In this document: positions 1,521-54,255 of the stretch, piece after piece
Layout: each line of letters starts with the position of its first letter
Position numbering within the stretch: the first letter of the stretch is position 1
Origin: an uncultured Eubacteriales bacterium
GTDB lineage: Bacteria > Bacillota > Clostridia > Christensenellales > Borkfalkiaceae
Assembly: GCA_900543915.1 (NCBI GenBank)
Contig: UQTB01000006.1
Span: 10,339-74,338 of the forward strand
Reading direction: 5' to 3'
Length of the DNA stretch: 64,000 nucleotides
Position numbers and translations under genes: made by a program
Notes under the pieces: model-generated
The model's database searches: none
Told to the model about the DNA's origin: nothing
The model's input: only the letters and a program-made list of their open reading frames with translations

Positions 1521-2912
1521 TCAGTTTTTGCCGGACAGTTTTTCGTCGATCCCCGCGGCCGCGAGCTTTCCGGCGCCCATCGCCAGAATGACCGTCGCCG
1601 CGCCGGTGACGGCGTCCCCGCCCGCATAGATGCCCACGCGGGACGTCTCTCCTTTCTCATCCACGATGATGCCGCCCCACTTCTCCGTCTCCAGCCCCTC
1701 CGTCGTGGACTTGATGAGCGGATTGGGAGACGTTCCGATGGCGATGACGACCGCGTCCACCGGAAGGACGAAATTGCTGCCCTTCTTCTCGACGGGGCGG
1801 CGCCTGCCGGAAGCGTCCGGCTCGCCGAGCTCCATCTCGACGCACTCGATGCCGCCGACGAACTTCTTTTCGTCGAGCAGGATCCGTACGGGGTTATTGA
1901 GCAGTCTGAAAATAATGCCCTCTTCCTTCGCGTGCTCCACCTCTTCCTTCCGTGCGGGGAGCTCCTCCTCCGAGCGGCGGTAGACGATATAGACTTCCTC
2001 CGCGCCCAGGCGCTTTGCGCAGCGCGCGGCGTCCATCGCGACGTTTCCTCCCCCCACGACCGCCACGCGCTTCGCGCGCATGATCGGCGTGGCGGAATCC
2101 TCCCGGTAAGCCTTCATCAGATTTACGCGGGTCAGAAACTCGTTGGCGGAATACACGCCGTTGAGGTTCTCGCCTTCGATCCCCATGAATTTGGGGAGCC
2201 CCGCGCCCGTCCCGATAAAGACGCACTCGTAACCGCCCTCCTTCATCAGCTCGTCGATGGAAACCGTTCTGCCGACGACGACGTCCGTTCTGATTTCCAC
2301 GCCCAGCTTTTCAAGCTCAGCCACTTCCTTTCTCACGATCTCCTTGGGGAGGCGGAATTCGGGGATCCCGTAAACCAGCACGCCGCCCGCCAGGTGTAGC
2401 GCCTCGAACACGGTGACCGAATATCCCTTCTTCGCGAGGTCGCCCGCGCAGGTCAGCCCTGCGGGGCCCGATCCGATGACGGCGACCTTATGTCCGTTTT
2501 TCTTCCCCGCGGCAGTTTCGGCGTTCTGCTTCGCGTTATGATAGTCCGCCACAAAGCGCTCCAGCCGGCCGATGGCGACGGGTTCGCCCTTGATGCCGCG
2601 CACGCATTTCTGCTCGCACTGCGTCTCCTGGGGGCACACCCTTCCGCACACCGCGGGAAGGGAGCTGGAACGGCTGATGATCTCGTAAGCCGCGTCGAAA
2701 TCCCCCTTCGCCACTTCCGCGATAAACGCGGGGATGTCGATCTGCACGGGGCAGCCCGTGACGCACGGCTTATGCCTGCAGTTCAGGCAGCGCTGCGCCT
2801 CGTCCATCGCGGTCTCGGCGGTATAACCGAGCGCCACCTCCTGAAAATTCTTATTCCTGACTTCGGGCGCCTGCGAAGGCATTTCGTTTTTCTTCAAGGA
2901 CATGTTCGGCAT
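1521..2912 (-). CDS. nfnB: NADPH-dependent oxidoreductase, glutamate synthase small-subunit (GltD)-like; NfnB/SudA type large subunit
   Basis: Cys-rich ferredoxin-like N-terminus (CLNCRHKPCVTGCP, CGRVCPQETQCE), two dinucleotide-binding GxGxxG motifs (VIGSGPAG, VVGGGNVAMD). True start MPNMSLKK at 2912 with RBS AAAGGAGGTG; the ORF-track N-terminal extension overlaps nfnA. Confidence 0.8.
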   Translation of the reverse strand: MPNMSLKKNEMPSQAPEVRNKNFQEVALGYTAETAMDEAQRCLNCRHKPCVTGCPVQIDIPAFIAEVAKGDFDAAYEIISRSSSLPAVCGRVCPQETQCEQKCVRGIKGEPVAIGRLERFVADYHNAKQNAETAAGKKNGHKVAVIGSGPAGLTCAGDLAKKGYSVTVFEALHLAGGVLVYGIPEFRLPKEIVRKEVAELEKLGVEIRTDVVVGRTVSIDELMKEGGYECVFIGTGAGLPKFMGIEGENLNGVYSANEFLTRVNLMKAYREDSATPIMRAKRVAVVGGGNVAMDAARCAKRLGAEEVYIVYRRSEEELPARKEEVEHAKEEGIIFRLLNNPVRILLDEKKFVGGIECVEMELGEPDASGRRRPVEKKGSNFVLPVDAVVIAIGTSPNPLIKSTTEGLETEKWGGIIVDEKGETSRVGIYAGGDAVTGAATVILAMGAGKLAAAGIDEKLSGKN

Positions 2913-6492: not shown

Positions 6493-6964
6493 TTCTCCGT
6501 CTCCTTTACTTCATTACTTTAATTTGATAAAGTTATGATGACATTATACTTTATTACTTTAAATTTGTAAAGTGTTTTGACGGCAAAAATAAAAAAAATT
6601 TAAAAAAGTGCCAAATTTTTTTCGCAATATATGCGCATACGTATGAATTTCCCGGCCGTTTCTCCCTTCTGGCGGTAAAATGCGCGCGCCTCCCGGGCAA
6701 AAATTGATCGGGCGCGCGCGCCGCTCTCGTAAGCTGAGCGGCCTTTTCGCCGCTTTTTTTCGTTATTTATGATGAGATTCGAAAAACAGAAAGCGTGAAA
6801 CAAGTTGTATCTAAACAGATCGGCCGCCCCATTGAAATCATGTTCTGATGCAGAAAATGGTTTTGCAAGCGAAAAATGCCTCCTTCCCCTCTGCAAGGCT
6901 TCCAAGCGGATTGTCTCGCTTTTCGATCTTTTCCTGTCGGCGCAGGATCCCCTCTTGAAATTTT

Positions 6965-7276
6965 CTTTTCACAATAAACATCTACCGGCTAAGCCGATGG
7001 TTTTTCGCTTTCGGGCTGTTAGCCCTAACACTGCCGCCAGCGCTCGCGCATATGACGCCCCGGCAGGCATGCAACCGTTACTTGCTTCCCGTGAACGCGC
7101 CCCTTTCCGCATCTTGTTCTTCCCGAATTGTCTCGCTCTTTTTTACGTTTCTGTTTTCTTTTTGAAAGCGGCACTTTCCTCTTTTTTGTTCATCGTTAAT
7201 GCCTTTTTCGGCCCCCGCCGTTATGGCGGGGGCGCTATACCAAAAGAGCGAAGACTCAAAAACCTTCGCTCTTTAT
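6965..7276 (+). repeat. Dispersed non-coding repeat family 1, copy A (~310 bp), ending in a bidirectional terminator hairpin
   Basis: About 80% nucleotide identity to 50345-50652 over the GGCTAAGCC...TTAGCCC hairpin module and the body, and to the reverse complement of 53955-54255. Indels break every reading frame between copies. Ends with hairpins GCCCCCGCC/GGCGGGGGC and AGAGCGAAG/CTTCGCTCT followed by T-runs on both strands. Confidence 0.7.
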
Positions 7277-7301
7277 TTCCTGTGAAAATTTGCGCACGCC
7301 G

Positions 7302-8759
7302 TCAGGAGGCCTTTTTCTTCCCGCGGCGCTCCGAAACCGCCTTGACGCGCTGCGGGGCTTCTTCCTGCTCCTCCACCGCCCGCAGCGCCTCCACGGAGAC
7401 CGAGCGGGTATGATAAATCGGCTTCCACTCCACCTTTTTGAACAGCGCGACCAGCGCGATGGGCAGATAGGTAAACATAAAGAGGGGGAACAAAAAGAGA
7501 TGGAAGATCTTTTTCCAAGTCGGACAGAGAATTTTCCTGCGCTCCGTCAGCAGCGTGATCCCCCCGAACAGGAGAAAGACGAGATACATATTGACCGCAT
7601 ACAGCCCGATGTGCGCCAGAGCTCCCAGCCCCGCACCGACGTTTCCCATTGAAAAACCGACGATCGCGCAGACGGTGTTGAAAAACAGCGTAGCGAGCGT
7701 GATCAGGAGCGCGGGACAGATCGTCGTCAGGATATCGTAACAGGAAAAATTGCGGATATCCTCTTTCATCAGGCGCCGGCCCTTTTTGGCGAATACCTGA
7801 TAAAACCCCTTCGCCCAGCGCTCGCGTTGGCGCCAGGACTGGCGGAAACGCGACGGCTGTTCGTCGAACAGCATGGCGTCCTTGGCAAATCCGATCTTGC
7901 GTCCGCTCAAAGCGAACTCCGTGGAACACTCGATATCCTCCGTCAGGGTGAAAAACTCCCAGTTTCCGTACTCTTTCACCACGTCGCGCGCGATCAGAAA
8001 CCCCGTCCCCGATATCGCACAGCTGCTTCCGAGCGTCATTCTGGCGCTGTTTAAGTGACAGGATTCGTGCAAAAACCAGTAGCCGTACCCGCTCGCGATC
8101 CAGTTTTCCCCGAAATTTTTGCTGTTCCGATAACTCGTGACCATGTCGTATCCGCGGTCGAACACCTTGTTCATCTCCGTCAGATAGGTCTTCGTCAGAA
8201 TATTGTCCGCATCCAGCACGACGTAAGCGTCGCAGCGCTCCGCGTAGAGCGGATCGGCGTGAAGATGCTCGAACAGATAGTGGAGGGCGAACCCCTTGCC
8301 GACTTTTTCCGGATCGTTGCGCTCGTACACGATACAGCCGAGCGAACGCGCGAGCGCCGCGGTCTGATCCGTACAGTTATCCGCCACGACGAAGATATCC
8401 ACCAGCTCCGCGGGATAGTCGTTGCGGCGAATGCTCTCGATGAGCTGTCCCAAAACCTTCTCCTCGTTGCGCGCGCAGATGACGATTCCCAGCCGATGGC
8501 GCTTTCCGGCGGGCGGTAAGGCCCGCTTTCCGCGGAAAACGCTGACGAACAGGTAGACGAACTGATGCAGATATAATAAGATAAAAAACAAAAAGAGCGC
8601 GCCGTTGACGATATTGACGATATTCGTCAGAATATCCTGCGTCGGCTCTCCGAATATTCCGCCGCCGATCAGCCGCGCGCATTCGGACGCGCGCGCCGCC
8701 GAAAAAGTGATAAAGTTTTTCAGCAAAAATACTACCTCCTCGGAATGCTTCCCAAACAA
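7302..8759 (-). CDS. Membrane-embedded processive family-2 glycosyltransferase (PNAG-/cellulose-synthase-like, IcaA/PgaC/BcsA type)
   Basis: N-terminal TM helices, GT-A domain with VLDADN (DxD), the QxxRW-type motif (QPSRFRQSWRQRERWAKG) and C-terminal multi-TM region. Confidence 0.8.
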   Translation of the reverse strand: MFGKHSEEVVFLLKNFITFSAARASECARLIGGGIFGEPTQDILTNIVNIVNGALFLFFILLYLHQFVYLFVSVFRGKRALPPAGKRHRLGIVICARNEEKVLGQLIESIRRNDYPAELVDIFVVADNCTDQTAALARSLGCIVYERNDPEKVGKGFALHYLFEHLHADPLYAERCDAYVVLDADNILTKTYLTEMNKVFDRGYDMVTSYRNSKNFGENWIASGYGYWFLHESCHLNSARMTLGSSCAISGTGFLIARDVVKEYGNWEFFTLTEDIECSTEFALSGRKIGFAKDAMLFDEQPSRFRQSWRQRERWAKGFYQVFAKKGRRLMKEDIRNFSCYDILTTICPALLITLATLFFNTVCAIVGFSMGNVGAGLGALAHIGLYAVNMYLVFLLFGGITLLTERRKILCPTWKKIFHLFLFPLFMFTYLPIALVALFKKVEWKPIYHTRSVSVEALRAVEEQEEAPQRVKAVSERRGKKKAS

Positions 8760-9122: not shown

Positions 9123-9380
9123 GATCAATACCGGTTTAACCGGTGGTTTTGATATCCCCTATAAGGGGAAACTGCCAGCCCCGTCAACGGGTATCGCGTT
9201 TATGATAGCGCCTTATTGCCCTGCTCCCCTGTAAAACAGTTTTCTCTTATCACTTTGCAGACCTTTAACCGATGGTTGTCTTATTATTTTTTTCTTAACT
9301 CTTCCTCCGGTAAAACCGGGAAATTTTTCATACGAAAGCGCCATCAAAAACCGCGGCGCGCCCGATCGGGGCGCGCCGCG
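9123..9380 (+). repeat. Dispersed structured repeat family 2, copy A' (~260 bp)
   Basis: Shares the consecutive hairpin modules, the TGTAAAACAG core and the CCGG..AACCGGG..ATTTTTCATRCGAAAGCGC tail with 35841-36166 and 48981-49176. Hairpin 2 shows a compensatory change (CCCCTATAAGGGG versus CCCTGAAAGGG). Confidence 0.7.
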
Positions 9381-16682: not shown

Positions 16683-16714
16683 TCGAAAAAACCGCCGGCT
16701 CAGCCGGCGGTTTT
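16683..16714 (+). terminator. Intrinsic terminator after the ger operon
   Basis: AAAAAACCGCCGGCTCAGCCGGCGGTTTTACGTTT: GC-rich hairpin followed by a T-run. Confidence 0.6.
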
Positions 16715-17050
16715 ACGTTTACAGTCCCCTTTTATGCTGCCGGCAGCGCGCAAGCCGCGCTTTTTTGGTCTGACGGACATACGCTGCCTTCATGCTTCCT
16801 TCCACATATTGATTCCGCGCCTGCCCTCCTCATCCTCTCGTCTGTGAACGGAATACCCATATCATTGCAATTTTCTTCTTACTCGCATTTTTTCGATTGA
16901 CTATCCCCTTACAAAAAAGAGAGCAATAAAAAGCGCTGTCTATAAGATTTAAAGGAGCGAAGAATTGTAACATTCTTCGCTCCTTTTATTGCCCGCTGAA
17001 TTGTAATTTATCTTTTAATCGTTCAATTTTTTTCATTTTCATACTTTATC

Positions 17051-25693: not shown

Positions 25694-26004
25694 GCAAACA
25701 CCTCCGATCACAATAAAAAACACCCGAACAGTAACGATACTGCCCAGGTGGTCGGCGATACGCCGTCTGCTCCCCCGCGGTTATCTCCGCCCATCCACCG
25801 GTCACAGACGACGGCGCCCTGACGGGCGCTATCTGTTCATTTGTCTTTTCCCGTTCAGTATAACGCCGATCGCCGAAATTGTCAACTGTTTTTTCGCGGA
25901 CAAACGGAAATTTCTTTTCCCCCGCCGGCGCGCCTTGTTTCGCCTTTTAAAAAATGCCGGCCGATTATTTTTTGATATTTTTCGGATTATTTTTAAAAAA
26001 GGGA

Positions 26005-31627: not shown

Positions 31628-33631
31628 ATGAAACGAATCAAACTAGTCAGCCTGATCCTGGCGATCGCCGTCATGACGGCATGTGCGGCCAACGTCTACG
31701 CCGCGCCGCTGAGCGATTACAAGCCGTCCTTCGCGGATTCCGTGATCGACGGGATCGGCATCACCCAGGCGGGCGAATCGGGGGGCGGCGTCATGCTCGA
31801 ACAGTACGCGCTCTCCACGCAAAATCTCTCCGCGGCAAAGTCGCTGATCATCCGCTACTACAACCCCACCGGCGCGGCGTGGCCCTTCTATCTCATCGCG
31901 CAGCAAAGCGGTGCGCTCCTCAACCCGGCGGACGGCACCGAATATCGGCTTTACGACGATTCTTTCGCGCTGGTCGAAACCGGGACCGTGCAGTACGGCG
32001 CCGTCGCGCCCGCCGCCGCAGCCGCCGGGTATCTCGTGATCCCCGCCGCGGCATTCGGGGCGCTGGGCACCGTCGAAGCGCTCTACCTCACGCTCCCCGC
32101 GGCAGCTCCGGAGCAGATCGGCGTCACCGTTCTGCACTTCGGATGGATCGGGTATTACGAGTCGGAGACGCCCGATTTCGCGACAGATTATCGGGTGCTC
32201 ACCGATTTCTCCACGTGGACGGAGGCGTATTTCGCGGGAAGAGCCACCGATCCGGCCGGCGCGGCGCTCTCCATCGTCAAGAGCACCCTGGACAAGAACG
32301 CGACGCTCTCCGGCATGATCGACGGCGTACAGATCACGCAGGTCGGGTTTCCCGGCACGTATGCGGAGGCAGGTCTGATGATCAACCGCTTCGAGACGGC
32401 GGAAGGAACCTTTGCCGACCTCAAAGACGTCACCTATTTCGCCTTTGAATACGCGAACCCCCTCGGGCGCACAGCGCTCATCAAGATGCAGGACGCCGCC
32501 GGTACGCAGGCGACGATCGCTGAGAAGTCGGAGATCACCTTCCTCGACCGTAATTTTGAAAATCCGCGCGTCGTCAGTCAGGCGGATCCCTATATGCGCA
32601 CGGATACAGGGAGCGGCTGGATGATCGTGCCCCGCACGGCGTTTACGGGGCTCGGAGATACGCTCGCGGCGTGCTATCTCCTGCTCAACGCTTATGACGC
32701 GTCCCTGAACGGCTCCGCGATCCAGTTCGGCAAGATCCTTACCTATCGGGGAGAAATTGCCGATTACACAGCGGGAGAGGTCATCGCCGATCCCTATTCC
32801 TGGTCCCTCACGGACTACACCGCCCGCCTGGCAACGACGTCGCAGAAACCCGTCGTACAGATGGCGCGCGTCCAATCTGCGCCGCTGATCGAAATTCCCA
32901 TCGCCTGCGATTTCGGCGACGTGCGGATTCTGGAGGATTTCTCCGCCGGCTACAGCGAAGACGAAGCGGAATACAACGCCGCCATGGCGGGAAAGATCTA
33001 CGACAAGGTCGGAGGGCTCACGGTGGCGCGCAGCGCTTCCGAATACGGAACGGCGCTCAAAGTAACCGTGACGGAGCCGAAAGCAGACCGGCCGGACGAT
33101 TATGCGGGGCTTACCTTCGCCGCCAAAGCCGCTGTCAACCGCTGGACGCGCTGGAAGAACGACGAGGATTCGCTCGAGGGCGTCACGCTCTTTTTCTCCA
33201 ACCGATCGGACATGGAAATTTCCTTCAGCTTTGAAATCGATGAATTCGACCCCGATCAGAATCTGTCGGAAAACCCCAGCGGAGAACGCTGGAGCGTGGC
33301 GCTGGGCGCGCGCGTCATTCTCTACGATACCGTAAAAGAGCAGCAGTCCCTCGTTCACGCTACGCCCACCGTCAATATTCCCGCAGGGTTTACCGGCTGG
33401 GTTAGGATCCCCGTAAGCGGATTCAAGAAAGCGGCATGGTGCACCTGGGGCAATTCCGTACTCGACCTGACGAACGTACCGCAGTTCACCCTGGCGTTCA
33501 ATACGCAGATCAATCTCGGCGCGGAATTCGTTTTGGACAGCATCGGGCTCTACTATAACAAGACCGTCGTCAAATCCATGTTCCGCGACAACGGCAGCTC
33601 CTTAAAGGACAATATGGAGGCAGGAAAATGA
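31628..33631 (+). CDS. Large secreted protein of unknown function (667 aa), probable glycan-binding or surface protein
   Basis: Signal peptide (MKRIKLVSLILAIAVMTACAANVYA). No catalytic motif recognised; coding periodicity and operon context support it as real. Confidence 0.6.
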   Translation: MKRIKLVSLILAIAVMTACAANVYAAPLSDYKPSFADSVIDGIGITQAGESGGGVMLEQYALSTQNLSAAKSLIIRYYNPTGAAWPFYLIAQQSGALLNPADGTEYRLYDDSFALVETGTVQYGAVAPAAAAAGYLVIPAAAFGALGTVEALYLTLPAAAPEQIGVTVLHFGWIGYYESETPDFATDYRVLTDFSTWTEAYFAGRATDPAGAALSIVKSTLDKNATLSGMIDGVQITQVGFPGTYAEAGLMINRFETAEGTFADLKDVTYFAFEYANPLGRTALIKMQDAAGTQATIAEKSEITFLDRNFENPRVVSQADPYMRTDTGSGWMIVPRTAFTGLGDTLAACYLLLNAYDASLNGSAIQFGKILTYRGEIADYTAGEVIADPYSWSLTDYTARLATTSQKPVVQMARVQSAPLIEIPIACDFGDVRILEDFSAGYSEDEAEYNAAMAGKIYDKVGGLTVARSASEYGTALKVTVTEPKADRPDDYAGLTFAAKAAVNRWTRWKNDEDSLEGVTLFFSNRSDMEISFSFEIDEFDPDQNLSENPSGERWSVALGARVILYDTVKEQQSLVHATPTVNIPAGFTGWVRIPVSGFKKAAWCTWGNSVLDLTNVPQFTLAFNTQINLGAEFVLDSIGLYYNKTVVKSMFRDNGSSLKDNMEAGK

Positions 33632-34734
33632 AAAAGATTACGATAATGGCATTTCTTCTGGCGTTCGTTCTCGCGTTCGGCGCGTGCGAAGAGCCCCAGA
33701 ACAACGCGCCCGTTTTGCGGAATCCCGAGGGTACGATCTCTTACCTCTTCCCCTCGTATGAAGGTTTTTATTACGAAGCACCCTCTGTTCTGACGGAGGA
33801 AAACCGCTTGGTCGTCAGCTATACCACAAACGCGACCGGGGGCTCCGAAGACAGCGTGATTGCCGTCCGCACGGCGGCAAAGAGCGGCTCCGCCTGGGAC
33901 TTTTCGGCAGAGCCCTCCGTCGCAGTCGCGCCCTCTGCGGACGGATGGGACAAATACAACGTCGGCAACGGCGACATCGTTGCAGGGAGCTTCACCTACC
34001 GGGGAACGGATTACTCTTATCTGATGGCTTATGAAGCGAGTCCCGCCGCCGCGGAAAAGCGTTTTTCCGTAGGGCTCGCCGTCTCTTCCGACCTGAAAAA
34101 CTGGGAGAAGGTGGGAAACGCCCCCTTCCTCTCCTATGATTACGAGACGTACGGCGACACCGCCGGGATCTGCTATCCCAGCCTCGTCAACCTCAACGGA
34201 AAAGGCAACATCCTGCTCTTTTATACCTACGCCTCCTCTACCGTGACCGAAACCAGGTTCGTAGAGGCAAATCTCTCCGACCTCGATCATCCCGCCGTAT
34301 CGGGCAGCATCTCCGTCGCGCACGAGGGACTTCCCCTGGACGGCAACGAGTGGGCTGTCGTGACGAATGCCGATTTCGCATACGACGCGGAAACGGATGA
34401 AATCTTCATCGTCAAGGACGGTTTCCCCTATGCCGCGCAGAACGCGCAGAAAGCGACCAAAGTCGAGATCGCCAAAATCGCGCTCGAATCTCTCTACGCG
34501 CAGACGGCGCGCTGGACGCCCGTCTGCTCGATCGTGGACGAATTCGTCGCGGGCGGGTACTCCCGCATCTACTCCGCGGCGTTCGTCTCCGACGCATGCG
34601 CATGGATTGCGGGCGAAGAAGTTTCCATCGCGTTCACCTCGGGCGTCGCGCAGAAAAACGCCGAAGACAAGACATGGATCCACAGCCCGGGCATCCATCT
34701 TCTCTCCATCGAAGCTGCACTGCGGGAGGACTGA
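33628..34734 (+). CDS. Lipoprotein, probable 5-bladed beta-propeller glycoside hydrolase (GH43/GH130-clan-like); paralog 1
   Basis: Lipobox LAFGAC. Shares FxYRGTDYxYLMAY and VGLAxSxDL blocks with the next gene, resembling beta-propeller furanosidase blades. Family assignment is tentative. Confidence 0.55.
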   Translation: MKKITIMAFLLAFVLAFGACEEPQNNAPVLRNPEGTISYLFPSYEGFYYEAPSVLTEENRLVVSYTTNATGGSEDSVIAVRTAAKSGSAWDFSAEPSVAVAPSADGWDKYNVGNGDIVAGSFTYRGTDYSYLMAYEASPAAAEKRFSVGLAVSSDLKNWEKVGNAPFLSYDYETYGDTAGICYPSLVNLNGKGNILLFYTYASSTVTETRFVEANLSDLDHPAVSGSISVAHEGLPLDGNEWAVVTNADFAYDAETDEIFIVKDGFPYAAQNAQKATKVEIAKIALESLYAQTARWTPVCSIVDEFVAGGYSRIYSAAFVSDACAWIAGEEVSIAFTSGVAQKNAEDKTWIHSPGIHLLSIEAALRED

Positions 34735-34737
34735 CCG

Positions 34738-35826
34738 TTGAAAAAATTGATCGCGCTGATCGCTTCCCTTCTTTTCCTTCTGCCGGCAGCGGGCGGCTGC
34801 GCCCCCGACAAGCCGGAAGAGAGTCCGGGCAACAACCTCCCCTTCGACGAACCGCTGGAACATGCGTTCAACTACTGTCCGTCCGTCATACAGGAAGAGG
34901 ACGGCACGCGTTACGTCTATTACTGTGCCAACAAGGTAAGCGGCGTCATTCAGGATCATATTTATTGCAGAAAGGGCACCGTGAACGCCAAAGGCGGATA
35001 CAGCTGGTCGGAAAAAACGCTGGTGCTCGCCCCCACGTTCGGCAACTTCGACGCCTTTCACTGCTGCGACCCCACCGTCATCGAGGGAGCATTCCGCTAT
35101 CGCGGCACAGACTACAAGTACCTGATGGCGTACACGGGCAACACCTCCAACATCAACAACAAAGTCGGGTTGGCTTTTTCCAACGATCTGATGTCCGGCT
35201 GGGTCAGCATGGACGAGCCCTTCATCACGTACGACGGCGACAAAACCCATTGGGGCGTCGGTCAGCCGGCACTGCTGTCCGTAGACTGTCAGGGCACGGT
35301 GCTGCTGCTTTACGCAGTCGGCGGCACCGCTACGTACATGAGGGCGGAAACATGGGCCCTGTCCGATATGTCCGAGCCGAAACGGCTCGGCGCCGCGCAG
35401 ATCACGCACAGGGGCCTTACCTCTCTCACCGGCGGAGCGGACTACCTCAACAACGCGGATATCGCCTTCGATCCCGCCACCCGGCGCTATTACTTCGTGA
35501 GCGACTGCCACCCTTACCCGACGGACGGCGATCCGCTCTTCGTGTCCGACTCCTTCCGCGTGACGTATCTCGGCGAAGCGGGCGGGATCGGCGACCTGTT
35601 TGAGAGCGCGCTTTCGCAGGCGGGAAAATCCTGGATGAATCTGGCCACCGTGGGCGAAGCGGAAACGGGTTTCAAGCGCAACAGCAACTGCGGCATCGTG
35701 AGAGATTCCTTCGGATATCTGCCGAATCCGGACGAAATCGAAATTCTGTATTCGATGAGCGAACTGGGCGGGCAGTACGAATGGACTTACCGCATTTACG
35801 CCCACACTCTCTCGATTGAAGAGTAA
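34738..35826 (+). CDS. Lipoprotein, probable 5-bladed beta-propeller glycoside hydrolase (GH43/GH130-clan-like); paralog 2
   Basis: Lipobox AAGGC; CCDPTVIEGAFRYRGTDYKYLMAY and VGLAFSNDLMSGW blocks. Family assignment is tentative. Confidence 0.55.
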   Translation: MKKLIALIASLLFLLPAAGGCAPDKPEESPGNNLPFDEPLEHAFNYCPSVIQEEDGTRYVYYCANKVSGVIQDHIYCRKGTVNAKGGYSWSEKTLVLAPTFGNFDAFHCCDPTVIEGAFRYRGTDYKYLMAYTGNTSNINNKVGLAFSNDLMSGWVSMDEPFITYDGDKTHWGVGQPALLSVDCQGTVLLLYAVGGTATYMRAETWALSDMSEPKRLGAAQITHRGLTSLTGGADYLNNADIAFDPATRRYYFVSDCHPYPTDGDPLFVSDSFRVTYLGEAGGIGDLFESALSQAGKSWMNLATVGEAETGFKRNSNCGIVRDSFGYLPNPDEIEILYSMSELGGQYEWTYRIYAHTLSIEE

Positions 35827-35840
35827 CAGGCACCCCGGCG

Positions 35841-36166
35841 CAATCAAAACCACCGGTAAAACCGGTGGTTTGCACATACCCTGAAAGGGTAACCCAGCCG
35901 CCCCGTTAACGGGTATCGCTTTTACTATAGCTTCTTATTACACTACACATCTGTAAAACAGATTCTTTATTTTATTATCGAACTGTATTAACTTTAACTA
36001 TAAGGTTACTTTTTTATTATCGAAATTTGCTCAAGCAATTTTTTATCTTCCCCCGGTAGAACCGGGGGATTTTTCATGCGAAAGCGCATTCAAAACCACC
36101 AGTTAAACTGGTGGTTTGCACACCCCCTAAAAGGGTAAGCTGCCGGCTCACCCGTTAAAGGGTACT
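35841..36166 (+). repeat. Dispersed structured repeat family 2, copy B' (~325 bp), with the three-hairpin module present at both ends
   Basis: 5' module AAACCACCGGTAAAACCGGTGGTTT / CCCTGAAAGGG / CCCCGTTAACGGG is repeated at 36090-36166 as AAACCACCAGTTAAACTGGTGGTTT / CCCTAAAAGGG / ACCCGTTAAAGGG. The changes are compensatory and preserve the stems. Confidence 0.75.
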
Positions 36167-36399
36167 GAATTTGGCAACGCATCACTATCTCCGGCAGCCG
36201 CTATGTCGTGGCTGTCTTTTTTTTGCCTTATTTACTCTTTATACCCGTGAACGGGTCTATGTACTCACTTATGCTGATTTGGTCGCGCGTATAATCTTCT
36301 TCCAACTGTTTCTTTATATACTCACTTATTACTCTCTCGTTACGCCTTACCGTAATAAGCCGTAATTCTGAAATAGTTTGCCATAATGATTTCCTCCTT

Positions 36400-40211: not shown

Positions 40212-40300
40212 TGGCGGAGGCTGAGGGATTCGAACCCCCGTGGGCTTTCACCCAAACGGTTTTCAAGACCGCCTCGTTATGACCGCTTCGATAAGCCTCC
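40212..40300 (-). tRNA. tRNA-Ser (anticodon UGA)
   Basis: Reverse complement reads GGAGGCTTATCGAAGCGGTCATAACGAGGCGGTCTTGAAAACCGTTTGGGTGAAAGCCCACGGGGGTTCGAATCCCTCAGCCTCCGCCA: anticodon loop CTTGAAA, long variable arm, TTCGAAT T-loop, encoded CCA. Closely parallels E. coli tRNA-Ser(UGA). Confidence 0.85.
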
Positions 40301-47771: not shown

Positions 47772-48785
47772 TCACTCCATATCGGGGTCTTTCCAGCCGG
47801 ATACTTTCCCCATCACGTACGTGCCGTCGCAGAATAGATCCACCCAGTAGCGCGTCTTCTCCTCCCCCATCAGCTCGCCGTTCTCGTTGCAGCCGTCCCC
47901 GCACATGACGAGGGGATAACCGTAAAGCCCTTCGATTGCGGGCGAAGCGCCGACCGCCAGCTTGCTGAAGACGATCATCCCGCGGTCCCCCGCCTTCCAC
48001 GTATCCTTGGGAAAATTGACGAGAATCATCTGCGTGAAATCGCGCGGCTCGGAATAGAGATAGATCTGATCGGGCTCCGCGTCCAGTATGGGCGAGCCGG
48101 CGGAGACCTGTACGATCTCCATCGCGCTGTTCAGCCCCGCGATCGCGCCGGAGAGCTCGCTCTCGGTCACGAATCCCGCAATGTCTTCCGCCGTCGCATA
48201 ACCGCTCAGATCGTCCGCCGTGGCGTAACCTGTCAGCTCCTCTTTGGTCGCAAGCGCCGAAAGTTCGCTCTTTTGCGCGTACTGCTCCAGCTGCGACTCC
48301 TTCACGTATTCCGAAAGGTCGGGCGCCGCCGCTCCTCCCAGCTTTTCCTCCACAAACGCTTCCATTTCGGCGCGCTTTACGTAGCCCGCCAGCTGTTTTT
48401 CCACCAATGCCATAAAATCCTCCCTCGTTTCGTATTCCGCCCCCGTCAGCGAAGGGAGCACGTCCAGCGTAAAGACCTCCGTCTGAAAGACGAAGTCCTC
48501 TCCCTCGAACACGACCTGCATTCTGAGCGGCCCCGCGACCGCGGTCTGCTTTTTGTCGATCTTCCAGTCAAACCGGACGGCCGTTTCGTCCGCGCTCTTT
48601 TGCAGGGGCACTTTTTCCGCGTACCAGTCCGACCGCAGGAATTTCATGAAAGCGGAAGCGGCGGAGAGATCCAGCGCCCCGTATGCGCGCGCGCATTCAA
48701 AGGTGATCGTATCTCCGCCGTCATCCCCGCGAAATACCCGGACCGGAGGCAGCTTTACCGTTTTTTCATTGATATTTGCCGTCAT
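47772..48785 (-). CDS. Orphan phage tail-like protein: BppU-family N-terminal domain + coiled-coil/repeat stalk + C-terminal putative receptor-binding domain
   Basis: True start MTANINEK at 48785 with AAGGAG RBS. The N-terminal ~120 aa follow the BppU_N pattern (VRVFRGDDGGDTITFE...DLS...FMKF.RSD......L......V.F...I.....AG.L..QVVFEGEDFVFQTEVFTLDV); then tandem LSxYxxxxEL/GYAT repeats. The ORF-track extension runs into repeat copy C'. Confidence 0.55.
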   Translation of the reverse strand: MTANINEKTVKLPPVRVFRGDDGGDTITFECARAYGALDLSAASAFMKFLRSDWYAEKVPLQKSADETAVRFDWKIDKKQTAVAGPLRMQVVFEGEDFVFQTEVFTLDVLPSLTGAEYETREDFMALVEKQLAGYVKRAEMEAFVEEKLGGAAAPDLSEYVKESQLEQYAQKSELSALATKEELTGYATADDLSGYATAEDIAGFVTESELSGAIAGLNSAMEIVQVSAGSPILDAEPDQIYLYSEPRDFTQMILVNFPKDTWKAGDRGMIVFSKLAVGASPAIEGLYGYPLVMCGDGCNENGELMGEEKTRYWVDLFCDGTYVMGKVSGWKDPDME

Positions 48786-48980
48786 ATAAAACTCCTTTCC
48801 GGCGCCTGCCCGTGTCGGCGCCTTACCCTTACAGTATAACGCCTTTTTTCCCCGCCGCAAGGGGGATATGACAGCCGGAAGGAAAAAAACCGAATTTTTG
48901 TCCGACAGCCGCTGCGGATGCGCGCAAAAAAAACGCCGGTGCGGCCGGCGGATATGCGTAAACAGGCTGTCAGGCGGGTG

Positions 48981-49176
48981 AATCAAAACCACCGGTAAAA
49001 CCGGTGGTTTGCTCATACCCTGAAAAGGGAAAATACCAGCTGCCCCGTCAACGGGTATCGCTTTTACTACAGCGTCTTATTGCTCCACACACCTGTAAAA
49101 CAGGTCCCTTATTCTATTATCGAACTGTATTATCTTAACTATGTTGAACCGGGGAATTTTTCATGCGAAAGCGCCG
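48981..49176 (+). repeat. Dispersed structured repeat family 2, copy C' (~195 bp)
   Basis: AATCAAAACCACCGGTAAAACCGGTGGTTTGC...CCCTGAAAAGGG...CCCCGTCAACGGGTATCGCTTTTACTACAGC...TGTAAAACAGG...TTATTATCGAACTGTATTA...AACCGGGGAATTTTTCATGCGAAAGCGCC, collinear with copies A' and B'. Confidence 0.75.
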
Positions 49177-49891: not shown

Positions 49892-49998
49892 AAACGCATA
49901 AAATAGCCAAAACTATGCGCAAGCGGATAAATAATAATTAAAAAATATGCGGAAAAGCATTATTTTCTCCGCTAACAGGAAATTATGCAAAACGAATC
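49884..49998 (+). promoter_or_regulatory. Cluster of four TATGC-N5/6-GCATA-like inverted repeats (candidate XRE operators) in the divergent intergenic region
   Basis: TATGCAAAAACGCATA (49885-49900), TATGCGCAAGCGGATA (49913-49928), TATGCGGAAAAGCATT (49936-49951), TATGCAAAACGAATC (49983-49997, overlapping the start codon of protein B). Confidence 0.5.
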
Positions 49999-50245
49999 TT
50001 TTGATCCGCGCGAAGCGGAAAAACAACTGAACGAACTGTTCCGTGAATATCTCGGCGAAGATCAGCCCGGAAAAGCGGAACAAAAAAAGCGCCTGTATAA
50101 AGACTGCCTCAAAGACGTGACGGATCGGGGATATACGGTCTTGCAGAACGTCCACAGGGGCATTCTGGTGACGAAGCGCGCCGTCATTTACTGTTCGGAA
50201 TCCAACGAAAAACTGCGGTATCTCCGGCAGAACGACGCGTTATAA
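49985..50245 (+). CDS. Hypothetical small protein B (86 aa), paralog of 49401-49662
   Basis: RBS AGGAAATT precedes the ATG. It shares the helical N-half and the GY(T/I)V(L/V)Q beta-rich C-half with protein A. Confidence 0.55.
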   Translation: MQNESFDPREAEKQLNELFREYLGEDQPGKAEQKKRLYKDCLKDVTDRGYTVLQNVHRGILVTKRAVIYCSESNEKLRYLRQNDAL

Positions 50246-50344: not shown

Positions 50345-50652
50345 CGAATCAAGATCCACTGGCTAAGCCGGTGGTTTTTCAGTTTCGGGCGGTTAGCCCT
50401 AATACTGCCCTGCGCGCGCATACGACGCCCCGGCAGTCATGCAATCGTCACTTGTTACCCGTCAACGCGCCCCTTTCGGCATGTTGTTCTTCCCCGATTG
50501 CTTCGCTCTTTTTTCTTTATAAAGAGGCTCTTTCCTCTCTTTTTCCCCGCCCTGCTCCTCTTTTTTGTGCATCGGCAAAGCCTGTCTTAAACCGGCGGAC
50601 TATCCGCGGGGTCTGACATAAAAGGAACCCCTTCCCGCCGCGGGAAGGGGTT
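50345..50652 (+). repeat. Dispersed non-coding repeat family 1, copy B (~310 bp), ending in a bidirectional terminator
   Basis: CCACTGGCTAAGCCGGTGGTTTTTCAGTTTCGGGCGGTTAGCCCTAATACTGCC... is collinear with 6965-7276. It ends CCCCTTCCCGCCGCGGGAAGGGGTTTTAATTTTTTT, a hairpin with T-runs on both strands. Confidence 0.7.
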
Positions 50653-51216
50653 TTAATTTTTTTCTTTCCGGTTTTTTTTCTCGCGCGGCTCCCCCCGCTG
50701 AAAGGAGAGAATCTTCTGCGCGTACAGCTTGCTCGCAATGGAGGTCGCCGCATATTTCAGCGCGAGGTCGGTGTAGTCGCCGTCCAGCGAAATCTCCTCC
50801 ACCGGTTCGCCCACCAGACAGCAGGCGCGCAGCGCTTTCTCCTGCTCGTCGCAGAAATAATTATAGACCTGCTTCTCGTTTTTGCCTTCGAGCAGCGTAT
50901 CGACCAGCTGCTTGATCTCGTCCAGCCGCAAAACCTGTTTCAGAAAACAGACCGCGTAGATATATGCGAGATGGCGGCGGTTGTACTTCTTCCCTTCCGG
51001 CGGCGGAACGATGCCGAACTTCACGTAGTTGTTGATCATGGAAGACGTGATGATGTTGTCTTCCGGATCGATTTTGAAAACAGAAAGCTGCCGGGACAGA
51101 TACGCGAGCACCTGATCCATATATAAGTCGAGATCGGGAAATTCATTGCTCCTGATGATATGAAAGTGCTCGATTGTCTTATTGAATTCGATAAGCTCCC
51201 TCGTCTGATCGCTCAT
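50653..51216 (-). CDS. DUF1836 domain-containing protein
   Basis: 187 aa. The core SSMINNYVKFGIVPPPEGKKYNRRHLAYIYAVCFLKQVLRLDEIKQL matches the DUF1836 family, which is characteristically encoded next to DegV genes. Confidence 0.65.
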   Translation of the reverse strand: MSDQTRELIEFNKTIEHFHIIRSNEFPDLDLYMDQVLAYLSRQLSVFKIDPEDNIITSSMINNYVKFGIVPPPEGKKYNRRHLAYIYAVCFLKQVLRLDEIKQLVDTLLEGKNEKQVYNYFCDEQEKALRACCLVGEPVEEISLDGDYTDLALKYAATSIASKLYAQKILSFQRGEPREKKNRKEKN

Positions 51217-51338: not shown

Positions 51339-52022
51339 ATGAAACAAACCGTTATCCTGGGCGACTCCATCTTCAAGGGAGTATTGCTCGCCGCAGACGA
51401 AAACCGCTACTACGTATCGCGCGAAATCGACTGGGCGGCAATCGGGCGGGAATTCGGCGCCGATATCCGCAACCTTTCCAAAATGGGATGCCGTACCACC
51501 CATGCGCCCGAAATCCTGAAAAAATACCTCGAAAAAAACGACCGGCCGGAAGTCATCGTCATAGAGCTCGGCGGAAACGACTGCGATTACGACTGGAAGA
51601 CGGTGGCGAAAAGCCCTTCCCGCGCGTACCAGCCGCTCACGCCCTTCGGCCAATTTCAGGAAAATTACCGCGCGCTGATCGCGCTGGCGCAGGCGAACGC
51701 CGGGAAAGTGATCCTCGTCAACCTGCCGCCGATCGACGAAAAGAGCTATTTCGAGTGGATTACGCGCAAAGGAGAAAGCCGGGAAAATATCCTGTACTTT
51801 TTGCATGACGACATCGGCCGCATTTACCGCGATCAGGAAATGTATTCCGAGCGCATCGGCAAGCTCGCCGCGGAGACGGGCTGCAAGCTGATCGATATCC
51901 GCTGTTCCTTTCTGCAATGCGGGGACTACCGCCCCCTGCTCTGCCGGGACGGCATTCATCCGAACAGCGCCGGGCACCAAAATATTATCAGAACTTTCGG
52001 CGAGGAGCTCGCCGCATCATAA
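51339..52022 (+). CDS. SGNH/GDSL-family hydrolase
   Basis: Block I ILGDSIFKG (GDS), block III GGNDCDY (GxND), block V DGIHPN (DxxH); RBS GGAGGAG. The overlapping minus-strand 246-aa ORF is artefactual. Confidence 0.8.
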   Translation: MKQTVILGDSIFKGVLLAADENRYYVSREIDWAAIGREFGADIRNLSKMGCRTTHAPEILKKYLEKNDRPEVIVIELGGNDCDYDWKTVAKSPSRAYQPLTPFGQFQENYRALIALAQANAGKVILVNLPPIDEKSYFEWITRKGESRENILYFLHDDIGRIYRDQEMYSERIGKLAAETGCKLIDIRCSFLQCGDYRPLLCRDGIHPNSAGHQNIIRTFGEELAAS

Positions 52023-52045
52023 AAGAACAGAAGGAGGAGTTCAAA

Positions 52046-52909
52046 ATGAAACTTGCCGTAACGGCGGAAACCACCATCGACCTGACGCCCGCGCTTCTTG
52101 AGGAGTTCGACATCAGAACCATTCCCCTGGGCATCACCCTGGAGGGCAAAGATATGAAGGACGGCGAAATGACGACGGACGAAATGTTCGAATACGTCGC
52201 GAAAACGGGCGTTCTGCCCAAGACCAACGCCGTCAACGAATTTGAATACGGCGAGCTGTTCACATCTCTGCTGAAGGAATACGACGGCGTCGTACATATC
52301 TCCATTTCGTCGGAGATCAGCAGCTGCTGCGCGAATGCGAAGAGCGCCGCGGAAAAGCTGAATAACGTCTTCGTCGTGGACAGCCGTTCCCTCTCCACGG
52401 GGATCGCTCAGCTCGCGATCTATGCGAGAAATCTGTCGCAAACCGATCTCAGCGCAAAGGAAATTTACGAAAAGGTACAGGCCCGCACCGCAATGCTGCA
52501 GGTCTCCTTCGAGCTCGAACGGCTGGACTATCTCTATAAGGGCGGCAGATGCTCCAGTCTGCAGTTTTTCGGGGCGAACCTGCTCAAGCTCCGCCCCCGC
52601 ATCATGGTGAAGGACGGCAAAATGGGCGCGGATAAAAAGTACCGCGGCAAAATCGAGCTGGTAGTACGCAAATACTGCCGCGACACGCTGAACGAGTACA
52701 ATACGCCGGACAAGAGCCTGGTCTTTATCACCTATACGACGGCTACGCCCGAAATGCTGAACGAGGCGACGAGCGCCTGCAAGGAAGCGGGATTCGAGCG
52801 GATCGAGTATACCCGCGCCGGCGGCACGATCTCCAGCCACTGCGGCGAGCACACGCTGGGCATCCTCTATTTCAACGACGGCCCCGAAAAAATCGAAGTT
52901 TCCAACTGA
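52046..52909 (+). CDS. DegV-family fatty-acid-binding protein (paralog 1)
   Basis: MKLAVTAETTIDL..., DegV/EDD fold, conserved C-terminal GTISSHCGEHTLGILYFNDG; RBS AAGGAGGAG. The ORF-track start at 51917 is an upstream extension. Confidence 0.85.
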   Translation: MKLAVTAETTIDLTPALLEEFDIRTIPLGITLEGKDMKDGEMTTDEMFEYVAKTGVLPKTNAVNEFEYGELFTSLLKEYDGVVHISISSEISSCCANAKSAAEKLNNVFVVDSRSLSTGIAQLAIYARNLSQTDLSAKEIYEKVQARTAMLQVSFELERLDYLYKGGRCSSLQFFGANLLKLRPRIMVKDGKMGADKKYRGKIELVVRKYCRDTLNEYNTPDKSLVFITYTTATPEMLNEATSACKEAGFERIEYTRAGGTISSHCGEHTLGILYFNDGPEKIEVSN

Positions 52910-53030: not shown

Positions 53031-53891
53031 GTGAAAATCGCAATATCCGCCGAAACTACGCTGGACATGCCCCTTGAAATGCGGGAACAATACGACGTGC
53101 ATGTCATTCCCTACGGCATTGTGCTCGGCGGCGAAGAATTTTTCGACGGCAAGTATTCGACGGAAGAGATCTTTGAAAAAGTCAAAGAGCTGGACGAACT
53201 GCCCAAGACCAACGCCATCAACGCCTATACCTACGGCGAATATTTCAAAGAGCTGCTGAAAGAATACGACGGCGTCGTACATGTGTGTTTATCCGGGGGA
53301 ATCACCTCTTCCACCGAGAACGCAAAGGCGGCGGCGGGAGAGCTGAAAAACGTATACGTCGTCGACAGCAGGTCGCTTTCGACGGGCATTTCTCTGCTCG
53401 TCTTATACGCCCGCCGGCTGGCGGATCAGGGGCTTTCTCCCAAAGACGTCTACGAAAAAGTGCAGGCGCGCGCGGAGAAGCTCCAGGTTTCTTTCGTCAT
53501 CGAGCGGCTGGACTACCTCTACAAGGGCGGCAGATGCTCCAGCCTGCAGCTTCTGGGCGCCAATCTCTTGAAACTCCGCCCCCGCATTATTCTGAAGGAC
53601 GGCAAGATGATCTCCGATAAAAAATACCGCGGCAGGATGGAACAGGTCGTCGCAAAATACTGTACAGATACGCTCAACGAGTTCAACACGCCGGATAAAA
53701 GCGAGGTGTTCCTCACCTACACGACCGCCACGCCCGAGATGGTAGCGGCGGCGCGCGGAGTACTGAAAAAGGCGGGCTTTGAGACGGTCTACGAGACGCA
53801 CGCGGGCGGCACCATCGGAAGCCACTGCGGCGAACATACGCTCGGTATCCTCTACTTCAACGACGGAACGGACACGGTTTTTATCGACTGA
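53031..53891 (+). CDS. DegV-family fatty-acid-binding protein (paralog 2)
   Basis: GTG start with GAGGGAGG RBS; about 60% identical to paralog 1 (GGRCSSLQ, TATPEM, GSHCGEHTLGILYFNDG). Confidence 0.85.
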   Translation: MKIAISAETTLDMPLEMREQYDVHVIPYGIVLGGEEFFDGKYSTEEIFEKVKELDELPKTNAINAYTYGEYFKELLKEYDGVVHVCLSGGITSSTENAKAAAGELKNVYVVDSRSLSTGISLLVLYARRLADQGLSPKDVYEKVQARAEKLQVSFVIERLDYLYKGGRCSSLQLLGANLLKLRPRIILKDGKMISDKKYRGRMEQVVAKYCTDTLNEFNTPDKSEVFLTYTTATPEMVAAARGVLKKAGFETVYETHAGGTIGSHCGEHTLGILYFNDGTDTVFID

Positions 53892-53920
53892 TCGCATTTT
53901 GAAAGAGTTTTCCAATAAAG

Positions 53921-53950
53921 GACAGCGTTGTTTCGCTGTTCTTTTTTTTT
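53921..53950 (+). terminator. Intrinsic terminator after degV paralog 2
   Basis: GACAGCGTTGTTTCGCTGTT hairpin followed by CTTTTTTTTT. Confidence 0.65.
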
Positions 53951-53954
53951 GTCA

Positions 53955-54255
53955 AAAGAAAACCACGCGATAAAGGCATGGTTAAAAAAAGGCTTTGCCG
54001 ATGCACAAAAAAGAGAAGGAAAAACAAGAATAAAAAAGGAAAGAGAAAAGGAAAAAGAGCAACCAAGAAAGCGGAGCAGGACAAAGGAGAAGAAAGGAAA
54101 GCGCAGAAAAGACCCGTTTACGGGCAGCAAGTAACAAATGTGTGACTGGCAGGTCAATCATAAGCGCACTTGTGCGCCGCCTGTATCGATTAGAGCTATG
54201 CCCGAAATTGTAATACCCCCCGCCTTGCGGATGGATTATTTTTTTGACGCGTTCC
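53955..54255 (-). repeat. Dispersed non-coding repeat family 1, copy C (reverse orientation, more diverged)
   Basis: The reverse complement carries TTTCGGGCATAGCTCTAATCG...CCAGTCACACATTTGTTACTTGCTGCCCGTAAACGG...CTCTTTTTTGTGCATCGGCAAAGCC; the last 25 nt are identical to copy B, and the rest is collinear with copies A and B. Confidence 0.6.

Follow-up and report, generated by a model that had tools for sequence, protein, structure and literature searches.

Three intergenic repeats of an uncultured Borkfalkiaceae bacterium are very probably transposase-less IS200 miniatures inserted behind host gene terminators

Three copies of an intergenic repeat and a fourth, degraded relic of the same family in the genome of an uncultured Eubacteriales bacterium (Borkfalkiaceae) are, with high confidence, non-autonomous miniatures of the tnpA-only IS200 group; each of the three copies consists of two cis-acting ends and a purine-rich spacer that replaces tnpA. 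The IS200 group includes IS200 of Salmonella and Escherichia coli as well as IS1541 of Yersinia. Since no tnpA is present in the copies, they were filed as non-autonomous IS200 derivatives and not as insertion sequences. The window, i.e. the whole stretch of DNA that was analysed, has a length of 64,000 nt and corresponds to positions 10,339-74,338 of the forward strand of contig UQTB01000006.1 (assembly GCA_900543915.1). An earlier note on this DNA had offered a 3′UTR-type sRNA, a terminator-carrying insertion element or an interspersed repeat as possible readings, and the right class among these is the insertion element or interspersed repeat. The copies are interspersed among unrelated genes and do not represent a duplicated gene tail, as had already been argued there.

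Direct reading of the sequence and alignment confirmed three homologous copies of approximately 270-300 nt at the reported places and on the reported strands. The proposed extent of about 310 bp (6965-7276, 50345-50652 and 53955-54255) was too long, and the proper boundaries are given in Table 1; moreover, the informative strand is the one opposite to that on which the repeat had been read. With a profile built from the three copies, the 64-kb window yielded copy B (E = 5.8e-84), copy A (E = 2.3e-81) and copy C (E = 7.1e-72), and beyond these a single weak match (model positions 182-278), which is the relic of Table 1. The identity of copies A and B is about 83-86%; the repeat finder gave 86% for this pair and detected A/C and B/C as inverted pairs. 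Copy C is more diverged, with about 65% identity in the right-end part, where the window copies are mutually 64-83% identical (17-36% different). The relic retains AGCGCGGCTTGCGCGCTGCCGGCAG and the terminal hairpin CCGCCGGC-TGA-GCCGGCGG, and it matches two miniatures from other genomes described below (29 nt at 96.6% with L021, blastn E = 1.5e-9; 81 nt at 74% with L019). A convincing left end of the relic was looked for and none was found.

Table 1. Coordinates of the mini-IS200 copies, their parts and the adjoining host terminators in the window
Feature	Position	Strand	Basis or remark
Copy A, mini-IS200, 268 bp	6973..7240	-	Profile match; aligned with tnpA-bearing IS200 relatives and other miniatures
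Copy A, left end	7240 to ~7179	-	
Copy A, purine-rich spacer	~7178 to 7100	-	
Copy A, right end	~7099 to 6973	-	
Copy A, left-end subterminal hairpin GCCCCCGCC-ATAAC-GGCGGGGGC	7211..7233	-	Perfect 9-bp stem
Copy A, right-end subterminal hairpin CCATCGGC-TTA-GCCGGTAG	6982..7000	-	One mismatch, one G-T pair
Copy B, mini-IS200, 270 bp	50347..50616	-	Profile match and alignments
Copy B, right-end hairpin	50356..50374		
Copy B, left-end hairpin	~50591..50610		One mismatch
Copy C, mini-IS200, 293 bp	53951..54243	+	Profile match and alignments
Copy C, left-end hairpin	53961..53983		One mismatch
Copy C, right-end hairpin	54216..54234		Two mismatches
Degraded right-end relic of the same family	16686..16782	-	nhmmer E = 1.9e-6
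Host bidirectional terminator of glycosyltransferase gene 7302-8759(-)	7242..7279 (hairpin ~7243-7274)		Putative target of copy A
Host bidirectional terminator of DUF1836 gene 50653-51216(-)	50624..50654		Putative target of copy B
Host bidirectional terminator of DegV gene 53031-53891(+)	53917..53944		Putative target of copy C

The element is non-coding, as the earlier note had concluded from the indels that break the reading frames between copies: all six frames are interrupted or unshared. The 202-aa and 110-aa ORFs, which had been described as translations of the same DNA in different frames, do differ in frame, with the exception of the first ~17 codons (LAKPVVFQFRAVSPNTA), which are common to both. 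On the opposite strand no frame was found that is both open and common to the copies. A small ORF starting with ATG-(A/C)AC-AAA-AAA-GAG was rejected: its peptides are 16 (A), 36 (B) and 10 (C) codons long and have neither a stop nor a frame in common. The frame ending in PFTGSK-stop was discarded as a gene because it lacks a start codon and is broken in copy B. By tblastn, tnpA is absent from every window copy and from the rest of the 64-kb window; only its last 6-8 codons survive. The conserved string 'GTTACTTGC.CCCGT.AACG' of the earlier note is the reverse complement of these last IS200 tnpA codons (...DPFTGSK-stop), which had been overlooked. In copy C the codon string for DPFTGSK-stop is intact at 54111-54134, with a tblastn match of KDPFTGSK at 54108-54131.

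The link to IS200 was obtained from relatives that carry the transposase gene. Viral contigs were scanned with the degenerate pattern TTTCGGGCN{1,3}TAGCYCTAA, which was derived from the conserved 5′ part of the repeat in the orientation of the earlier note. Sequence of the window copies was carried by 6 of the 13 matches (L001, L003, L006, L007, L008 and L011); the other seven were chance matches in coding DNA. In the contigs that were long enough (L001, L003, L008 and L011), the shared sequence passes without a break into the 3′ terminus of an oppositely oriented gene, which in L001 (4871-5341) encodes an IS200 Y1 transposase (Pfam PF01797, E = 5.8e-42). The L001 element has 69% DNA identity to the tnpA of the annotated E. 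coli 'IS200/IS605-like element IS200C'. The scan of viral contigs with the 3′ box TCTTTTTTGTNCATCGNNAANGCC gave 0 matches, the scan with GCTTTGCCGATGMACAAA gave one unrelated match (L032), and a search of a plasmid collection in distant mode with copy B gave no match.

A metagenome scan was designed for tnpA-bearing elements with the type of right end seen in the miniatures and returned L041 and L042, both of which are interrupted by the end of their contig, as well as L043, the tnpA of which has an internal gap. In the right end, L041 matches the miniature L019 with 95% identity and window copies A, B and C with 78-79%, and L043 has exactly the same left-end hairpin as the miniatures, CCCGCGGATAGTCCGCGGG. 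A deletion derivative was found in L039 (~1700-1835), a 5′-truncated element in which the codons for ..SLAHTKWNCK are fused to those for AIKEYIATQL.., an internal deletion of tnpA. In L034 (~2575-2640, minus strand) the tnpA ORF stops (..MGNV-stop) just before the conserved CCCGTTTACGGGTAGCAAGTAA, and the motif is kept although it is untranslated. Because the gene-less lineages keep the right end from exactly CCCGTTTACGGG onwards, and because in L034 the motif persists after an earlier stop, the sequences suggest that the 'last codons' of tnpA may be kept as a cis-acting DNA element which delimits the IS200 right end on its inner side.

Read in tnpA orientation, the miniature starts with a left end of about 60 nt, composed of GTAT..AAAACC, a subterminal hairpin of 8-9 bp, GGTT.., an A-rich stretch and then the box GGCTTTGCCGATGMAC; it is in register with the complete elements (GTAT..AAAACC-hairpin-GGTT...GCTTT.GCCGATG). 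The place of tnpA and its 5′UTR is taken by a spacer of 84-102 nt in the window copies, with 77-90% purine, and of up to 142 nt in relatives; its sequence was not recognisable as tnpA or 5′UTR. The right end of about 125-135 nt starts with the last tnpA codons (PFTGSK-stop), at the hairpin CCCGTTTACGGG, and is made up of CCCGTTTACGGG.AGCAAGTAAC, a CTGCCRG segment, a GCGC hairpin, GGGCTA..GCCC, GAAA..GAAAAACC, the terminal hairpin and ATNTTTATT. In copy A the element finishes with ATGTTTATT after the right-end hairpin. The elements begin with GTAT.. and finish with ..TTTATT, and these termini are not inverted repeats of one another. No direct repeat that would represent a target-site duplication was found in the flanks of 14 insertions; the check for duplications at the copy borders, which the earlier note had proposed, thus came out negative, as is predicted for the IS200/IS605 family.

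Subterminal hairpins are present near both ends in all three copies and in all relatives, and the left-end hairpin of copy A is aligned in register with those of all relatives and with that of IS200C. In the terminal right-end hairpin, pairing is kept via double changes at 4 of 8 pairs. The aligned stems of the relatives are essentially all perfectly paired; in the window copies 5 of 6 stems contain one or two mismatches, and only the left-end hairpin of copy A is intact. The long GGCTAA...TTAGCC hairpin that had been proposed as a shared feature can be formed in A and B and is missing from C and from every relative, and it was therefore rejected; copy C and 20 relatives favour two separate local hairpins, CCACCGGC-TTA-GCCGGTGG and GGGC-N3-5-GCCC. 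RNAalifold applied to the right ends returned three local hairpins only, and a long-range helix CTGCCRG / CYGGYAG that visual inspection had suggested around the GCGC hairpin was not among them, the alignment being unstable there. On the strand antisense to tnpA, T-runs follow both hairpins of the element, and these structures scored as terminator-like for the right end of copy B and the left end of copy C; the right-end hairpin of copy B with its T5 was flagged on the plus strand.

Next to each copy there is a strong hairpin, T-rich in its tails on both strands and 0-26 nt past the stop codon of the adjacent gene; its presence had been described previously. The assignment of these terminators to the element itself could not be maintained: they are unrelated in sequence between the copies and are the host genes' own, and 14 of 14 independent insertions adjoin such a structure. 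The terminator beside copy A (-15.7 kcal/mol) ends in the tail TTTTG directly abutting the left end, the one beside copy B has a 14-bp stem on both strands (-22.2 kcal/mol) and a tail CCTTTTAT which likewise abuts the left end, and the one beside copy C consists of an 11-bp stem followed by T9 (-15.1 kcal/mol). For the 14 insertions (3 in the window, 6 other miniatures and 5 tnpA-bearing elements), the 42 nt before the left-end boundary were folded. Each of them gave a hairpin with a folding energy between -13 and -26 kcal/mol, and T accounts for 5-8 of the 8 nt immediately next to the left end. The host genes next to the window copies are co-oriented with the element. Due to the fact that the hairpins are unrelated to each other and lie 0-26 nt behind host stop codons, and that IS200C is located alike, they were regarded as host structures with the element placed on their T-tract. 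In nearly all 14 insertions the last letters of the left flank are TTTTT, TTATT or TTTAT, and the right end finishes in TTTATT, which fits the rule of the IS200/IS605 family that the target resembles the right-end terminus. An independent published survey reports that the over-representation of terminator-like sequences is strongest immediately upstream of IS200/IS605 elements (PMC13548323). The preference for terminators could reflect the survival of harmless insertions rather than true targeting.

Some further features were observed in the surroundings of the window copies. Copy C is situated behind the second of two tandem DegV paralogues (51917-52909 and 53031-53891, both on the plus strand), with about 77% identity across 300 nt. 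Copy A and a divergent SBP gene are separated by a gap of 480 nt, in which a terminator-like hairpin GAGCGGC-CTTTTC-GCCGCTT followed by T7 is located at 6720-6760(+), and no plus-strand ORF ends at it. The strongest promoter-like site of this region, on the minus strand at 6571-6543 with a match of 11/12, is directed towards the SBP gene.

Gene-less relatives were retrieved from a genome collection by scanning with the junction between left end and spacer, GGCNTTNNCGATGMACAAAAAAGAG. The scan gave 10 loci in six MAGs of Clostridia/Bacillota, one of them labelled Candidatus Borkfalkia avicola, which have the element alone in common with the window, the flanks being unrelated. Together, 11 miniatures (3 from the window and 8 from the six MAGs; 7 genomes) share one tnpA-less architecture in unrelated contexts. 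HRGM_Genome_2163 contains three miniatures of 334 bp which are 98.5-100% identical and occupy three sites with different flanks. Near-identical miniatures at three sites of one MAG mean that the gene-less form itself has transposed, recently in that genome. Vertical inheritance without transposition, with copies only at orthologous positions, conflicts with the unrelated flanks in the MAGs and with the MAG that has three sites. A second gene-less derivative of about 430 bp, which the metagenome scan had returned as L035, L036, L037, L038 and L040, has a GC-rich spacer of several hairpins, e.g. GGCTCCCTCCGAGAGGGAGC and CTTCCTCTCGGAGGAAGG; its left end, in the contigs that extend so far, is the same, and the exact starting point of its right end is CCCGTTTACGGGTAGCAAGTAAC, as in the miniatures with the purine spacer.

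Two loci of HRGM_Genome_2163, L023 (5266-5607) and L014 (5581-5924), have an identical left flank, left end and spacer and right ends of different subtypes (88% identity overall), that of L023 resembling window copy C and L001. This pair suggests recombination between IS200 variants, or else a duplicated locus or an assembly chimera.

All retrieved contigs of the same species carry copies A and B with 98.7-100% identity, and no empty sites or presence-absence polymorphism were found among the contigs retrieved by exact-protein look-ups of the neighbour genes. The window copies are most likely old, immobile fossils, because A and B are present in every same-species contig examined, the copies have diverged from each other and their hairpins contain mismatches.

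IS200/IS605 elements move by single-strand 'peel-and-paste' transposition. In the mechanism proposed here, a Y1 (HUH) TnpA from a complete IS200 elsewhere would bind in trans to the left- and right-end hairpins on one (top) strand, the element would be excised as a single-stranded circle, and integration of the circle on the 3′ side of a T-rich pentanucleotide, TTTTT or TTATT, would leave no target duplication. The target actually used would be the T-tract of an intrinsic terminator, and this would be the reason why each copy is found directly behind the terminator of a co-oriented gene. We infer that mobilisation in this host took place in trans. The purine-only spacer, which is unable to pair with itself, may speculatively be seen as an unstructured linker of sufficient length between the ends. 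Since T-runs follow both hairpins on the opposite strand, the element would be transcriptionally insulated from both sides.

An independent structured sRNA gene, or a 3′UTR-derived sRNA ending at the bidirectional terminator, with an incidental likeness to IS200, would account for the folding of copies A and B, which is more stable than that of shuffled sequences (z = -3.2 and -3.4), for the compensatory changes in the hairpins and for the CU-rich tract ahead of terminator-like hairpins, and Salmonella IS200 is known to yield sRNAs (art200 and 5′UTR fragments; PMC4513863, PMC5435999). It is nevertheless extremely improbable. Over their full length, coding codons included, the two ends are homologous to those of IS200 elements with tnpA, and they leave nothing further to be explained; the hairpins are accounted for as the left- and right-end hairpins of IS200, and DNA hairpins to which TnpA binds would be expected to covary just as well. 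No Rfam family matched the elements at its gathering threshold (the best matches of copy A at E<=10 had 13-18 bits, far below the thresholds), and scans of both strands found no sigma-70-like promoter site within the copies or immediately ahead of them. Furthermore, the sequences upstream of the copies are unrelated, conservation is lowest in the 'body' between the hairpins, which has many indels, and copy C reached a z of only -1.7. The decay in place of three full-length IS200 insertions, each losing tnpA independently and without any transposition of a miniature, was considered very unlikely. It would agree with the mutual divergence of the window copies, their presence (A and B) in every same-species contig examined and the hairpin mismatches, and other deletion derivatives do exist (the internal tnpA deletion of L039 and the different spacer of L035-L038 and L040). 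However, 11 copies have the same junctions, at which the box ...CGATGMACAAAAAAGAG leads straight into the purine spacer and the spacer ends just before CCCGTT.ACGGG. Independent deletions would not reproduce such shared junctions, and the near-identical 334-bp miniatures at three sites of one MAG represent transposition of the miniature.

A use of the copies by the host as additional terminators or insulators between convergent genes would be compatible with an origin from IS200, and it is unlikely; in this reading, the right-end hairpin with its T5 would now terminate the gene that reads in from the right-end side. Such a role could be read from the hairpins and T-runs antisense to tnpA that score as terminator-like (copy B right end, copy C left end), from the position of the right-end hairpin of copy B as the first terminator-like structure downstream of an 86-aa ORF (49985-50245), from the occurrence of A and B in all same-species contigs examined and from the experimentally shown bidirectional terminator in the IS200 left end (PMC4513863). 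On the other hand, the host terminator was bidirectional already before the insertion, so that no new function is needed, the hairpins are gathering mismatches, which speaks against purifying selection, and fixation in one species is equally expected of neutral old insertions. Decidedly unlikely is also the wider proposal that the miniatures of gut Clostridia express a transposon-derived regulatory RNA or act as exapted terminators and are kept by selection; it was considered because independent tnpA-less lineages with two different spacers keep the same multi-hairpin right end of about 130 nt from CCCGTTTACGGG onwards. From the antisense strand of the spacer, a CU-rich RNA of anti-Shine-Dalgarno-like character is predicted, which would stop at the terminator formed by the left-end hairpin, i.e. 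at the position of the antisense sRNA art200 in Salmonella IS200.

The identification as non-autonomous IS200 miniatures is also reflected in the comparison with known systems. The miniatures and E. coli IS200C have near-identical termini, with 63-72% identity in the right end and 54-63% in the left end, and the termini of IS200C, GT.CA.AGAAAACC... and ...GAAAAACCTCCGGCTATGCCGGAGGATATTTATT, are arranged in the same architecture. These likenesses connect the family with IS200 as studied by experiment. Common to IS200 and the miniatures are a left-end start GT..A.AGAAAACC followed by the hairpin and GGTTC..AAAGCTTT, and a right end CCCGTTTACGGG..GTAAGTAAC ... GAAAAACC-hairpin-GGATATTTATT. The right-end hairpin of IS200C, CCTCCGGC-TAT-GCCGGAGG followed by ATATTTATT, is homologous to that of copy A, and IS200C sits behind the adhE terminator as the miniatures sit behind host terminators. 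The likeness extends to the left-end hairpin at about nt 12-34, a right end of about 130-140 nt and the lack of terminal inverted repeats and target duplication. In contrast to IS200, the miniatures of this uncultured gut Clostridia lineage have no transposase gene and no 5′UTR hairpin sequestering the SD, contain a purine-rich spacer of 84-142 nt instead, and measure 268-334 bp compared with about 707 bp. In the 707 bp of IS200, the left end was assigned to bp 1-163 and the right end to bp 566-707, and the left-end hairpin at nt 12-34 was shown experimentally to be an insulating bidirectional terminator (PMC4513863). The antisense T-runs after the hairpins of the miniatures would match this insulating role (PMC4513863). 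A constructed mini-IS200 substrate consisted of both ends flanking a kanamycin-resistance gene, with TnpA provided separately from a plasmid (PMC4513863).

Elements termed PATEs are without terminal inverted repeats and target duplications, have near-terminal palindromes related to IS200/IS605 and are too short to encode a transposase (PMC3119063). The miniatures fit this published definition (PMC3119063) and were assigned to the PATE or MITE-like type of non-autonomous IS200/IS605 derivative. An origin by deletion of the core from a complete element was proposed for PATEs (Dyall-Smith et al. 2011, PMC3119063), and PATE-like elements were noted in Geobacillus (Meers et al. 2023, PMC10055086). 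PATEs and the miniatures both occur in multiple copies that need mobilisation in trans, and the PATE HqIRS71 likewise keeps C-terminal coding remnants. The described PATEs derive mostly from IS605/IS1341 (tnpB-bearing) elements of haloarchaea or Geobacillus, often with omega-RNA, whereas the miniatures derive from tnpA-only IS200, and no relationship of the miniatures to tnpB or omega-RNA was found. Additionally, their core is replaced by the purine-rich spacer, in contrast to the simple deletion in PATEs. REP/BIME sequences are clustered palindromes of about 20-40 nt, which are mobilised by RAYT (TnpA_REP) transposases. They share with the miniatures the character of short hairpin-forming intergenic repeats that are tied to the IS200/IS605 Y1 system and are often located at gene 3′ ends, but REPs have no homology to the IS200 left and right ends, whereas the miniatures are single units of about 280 bp with both IS200 ends. 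No published description of a mini-IS200 with a purine-rich spacer in gut Clostridia was found; the kind of element itself is well known.

For annotation it follows that these repeats of about 280 bp and the spurious ORFs of 100-200 aa within them are non-autonomous IS200 derivatives and neither hypothetical proteins nor candidate sRNAs. The 14 of 14 insertions add a clean example of IS200-group elements lying exactly on the T-tracts of intrinsic terminators, and transposase-less IS200 miniatures have spread in uncultured gut Clostridia. The fact that independent gene-less lineages strictly keep these 130 nt of the right end shows how far the cis-acting right end of IS200 extends, a result of use to those who work on IS200/IS605 transposition. 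The miniatures as such are ordinary small relics of mobile DNA and open no new biological question.

A second repeat family was observed in the window at 9130-9341, 35844-36164 (two tandem units), 48983-49174 and 36249-36353(-), with the hairpins CCACCGGT-AAAA-CCGGTGG, ACCCTTTAAGGG and others, and the mini-IS200 profile gave no match to these repeats. These repeats seem to represent the right end of another IS200-like element. The unit 36090-36164 is directly preceded by the remnant of a TnpA C-terminus, TVRRNERVISEYIKKQLEEDYTRDQISISEYIDPFTGIKSK-stop (tblastn E = 1e-4), which again ends in CCCGTTCACGGG. The ORFs 33553-35877(-) and 47772-49016(-) have near-identical N-termini (M[CS]KPPVLPVVLI...), which are translations of the second-family hairpin AAACCACCGGTTTTACCGGTGGTTT; therefore, at least the starts of both ORFs are repeat artefacts. 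Moreover, a ZMP/ZTP riboswitch (RF01750, 51.7 bits, above the gathering score) was identified at 25735-25815(-) and a tRNA gene (RF00005, 52.9 bits) at 40215-40300(-).
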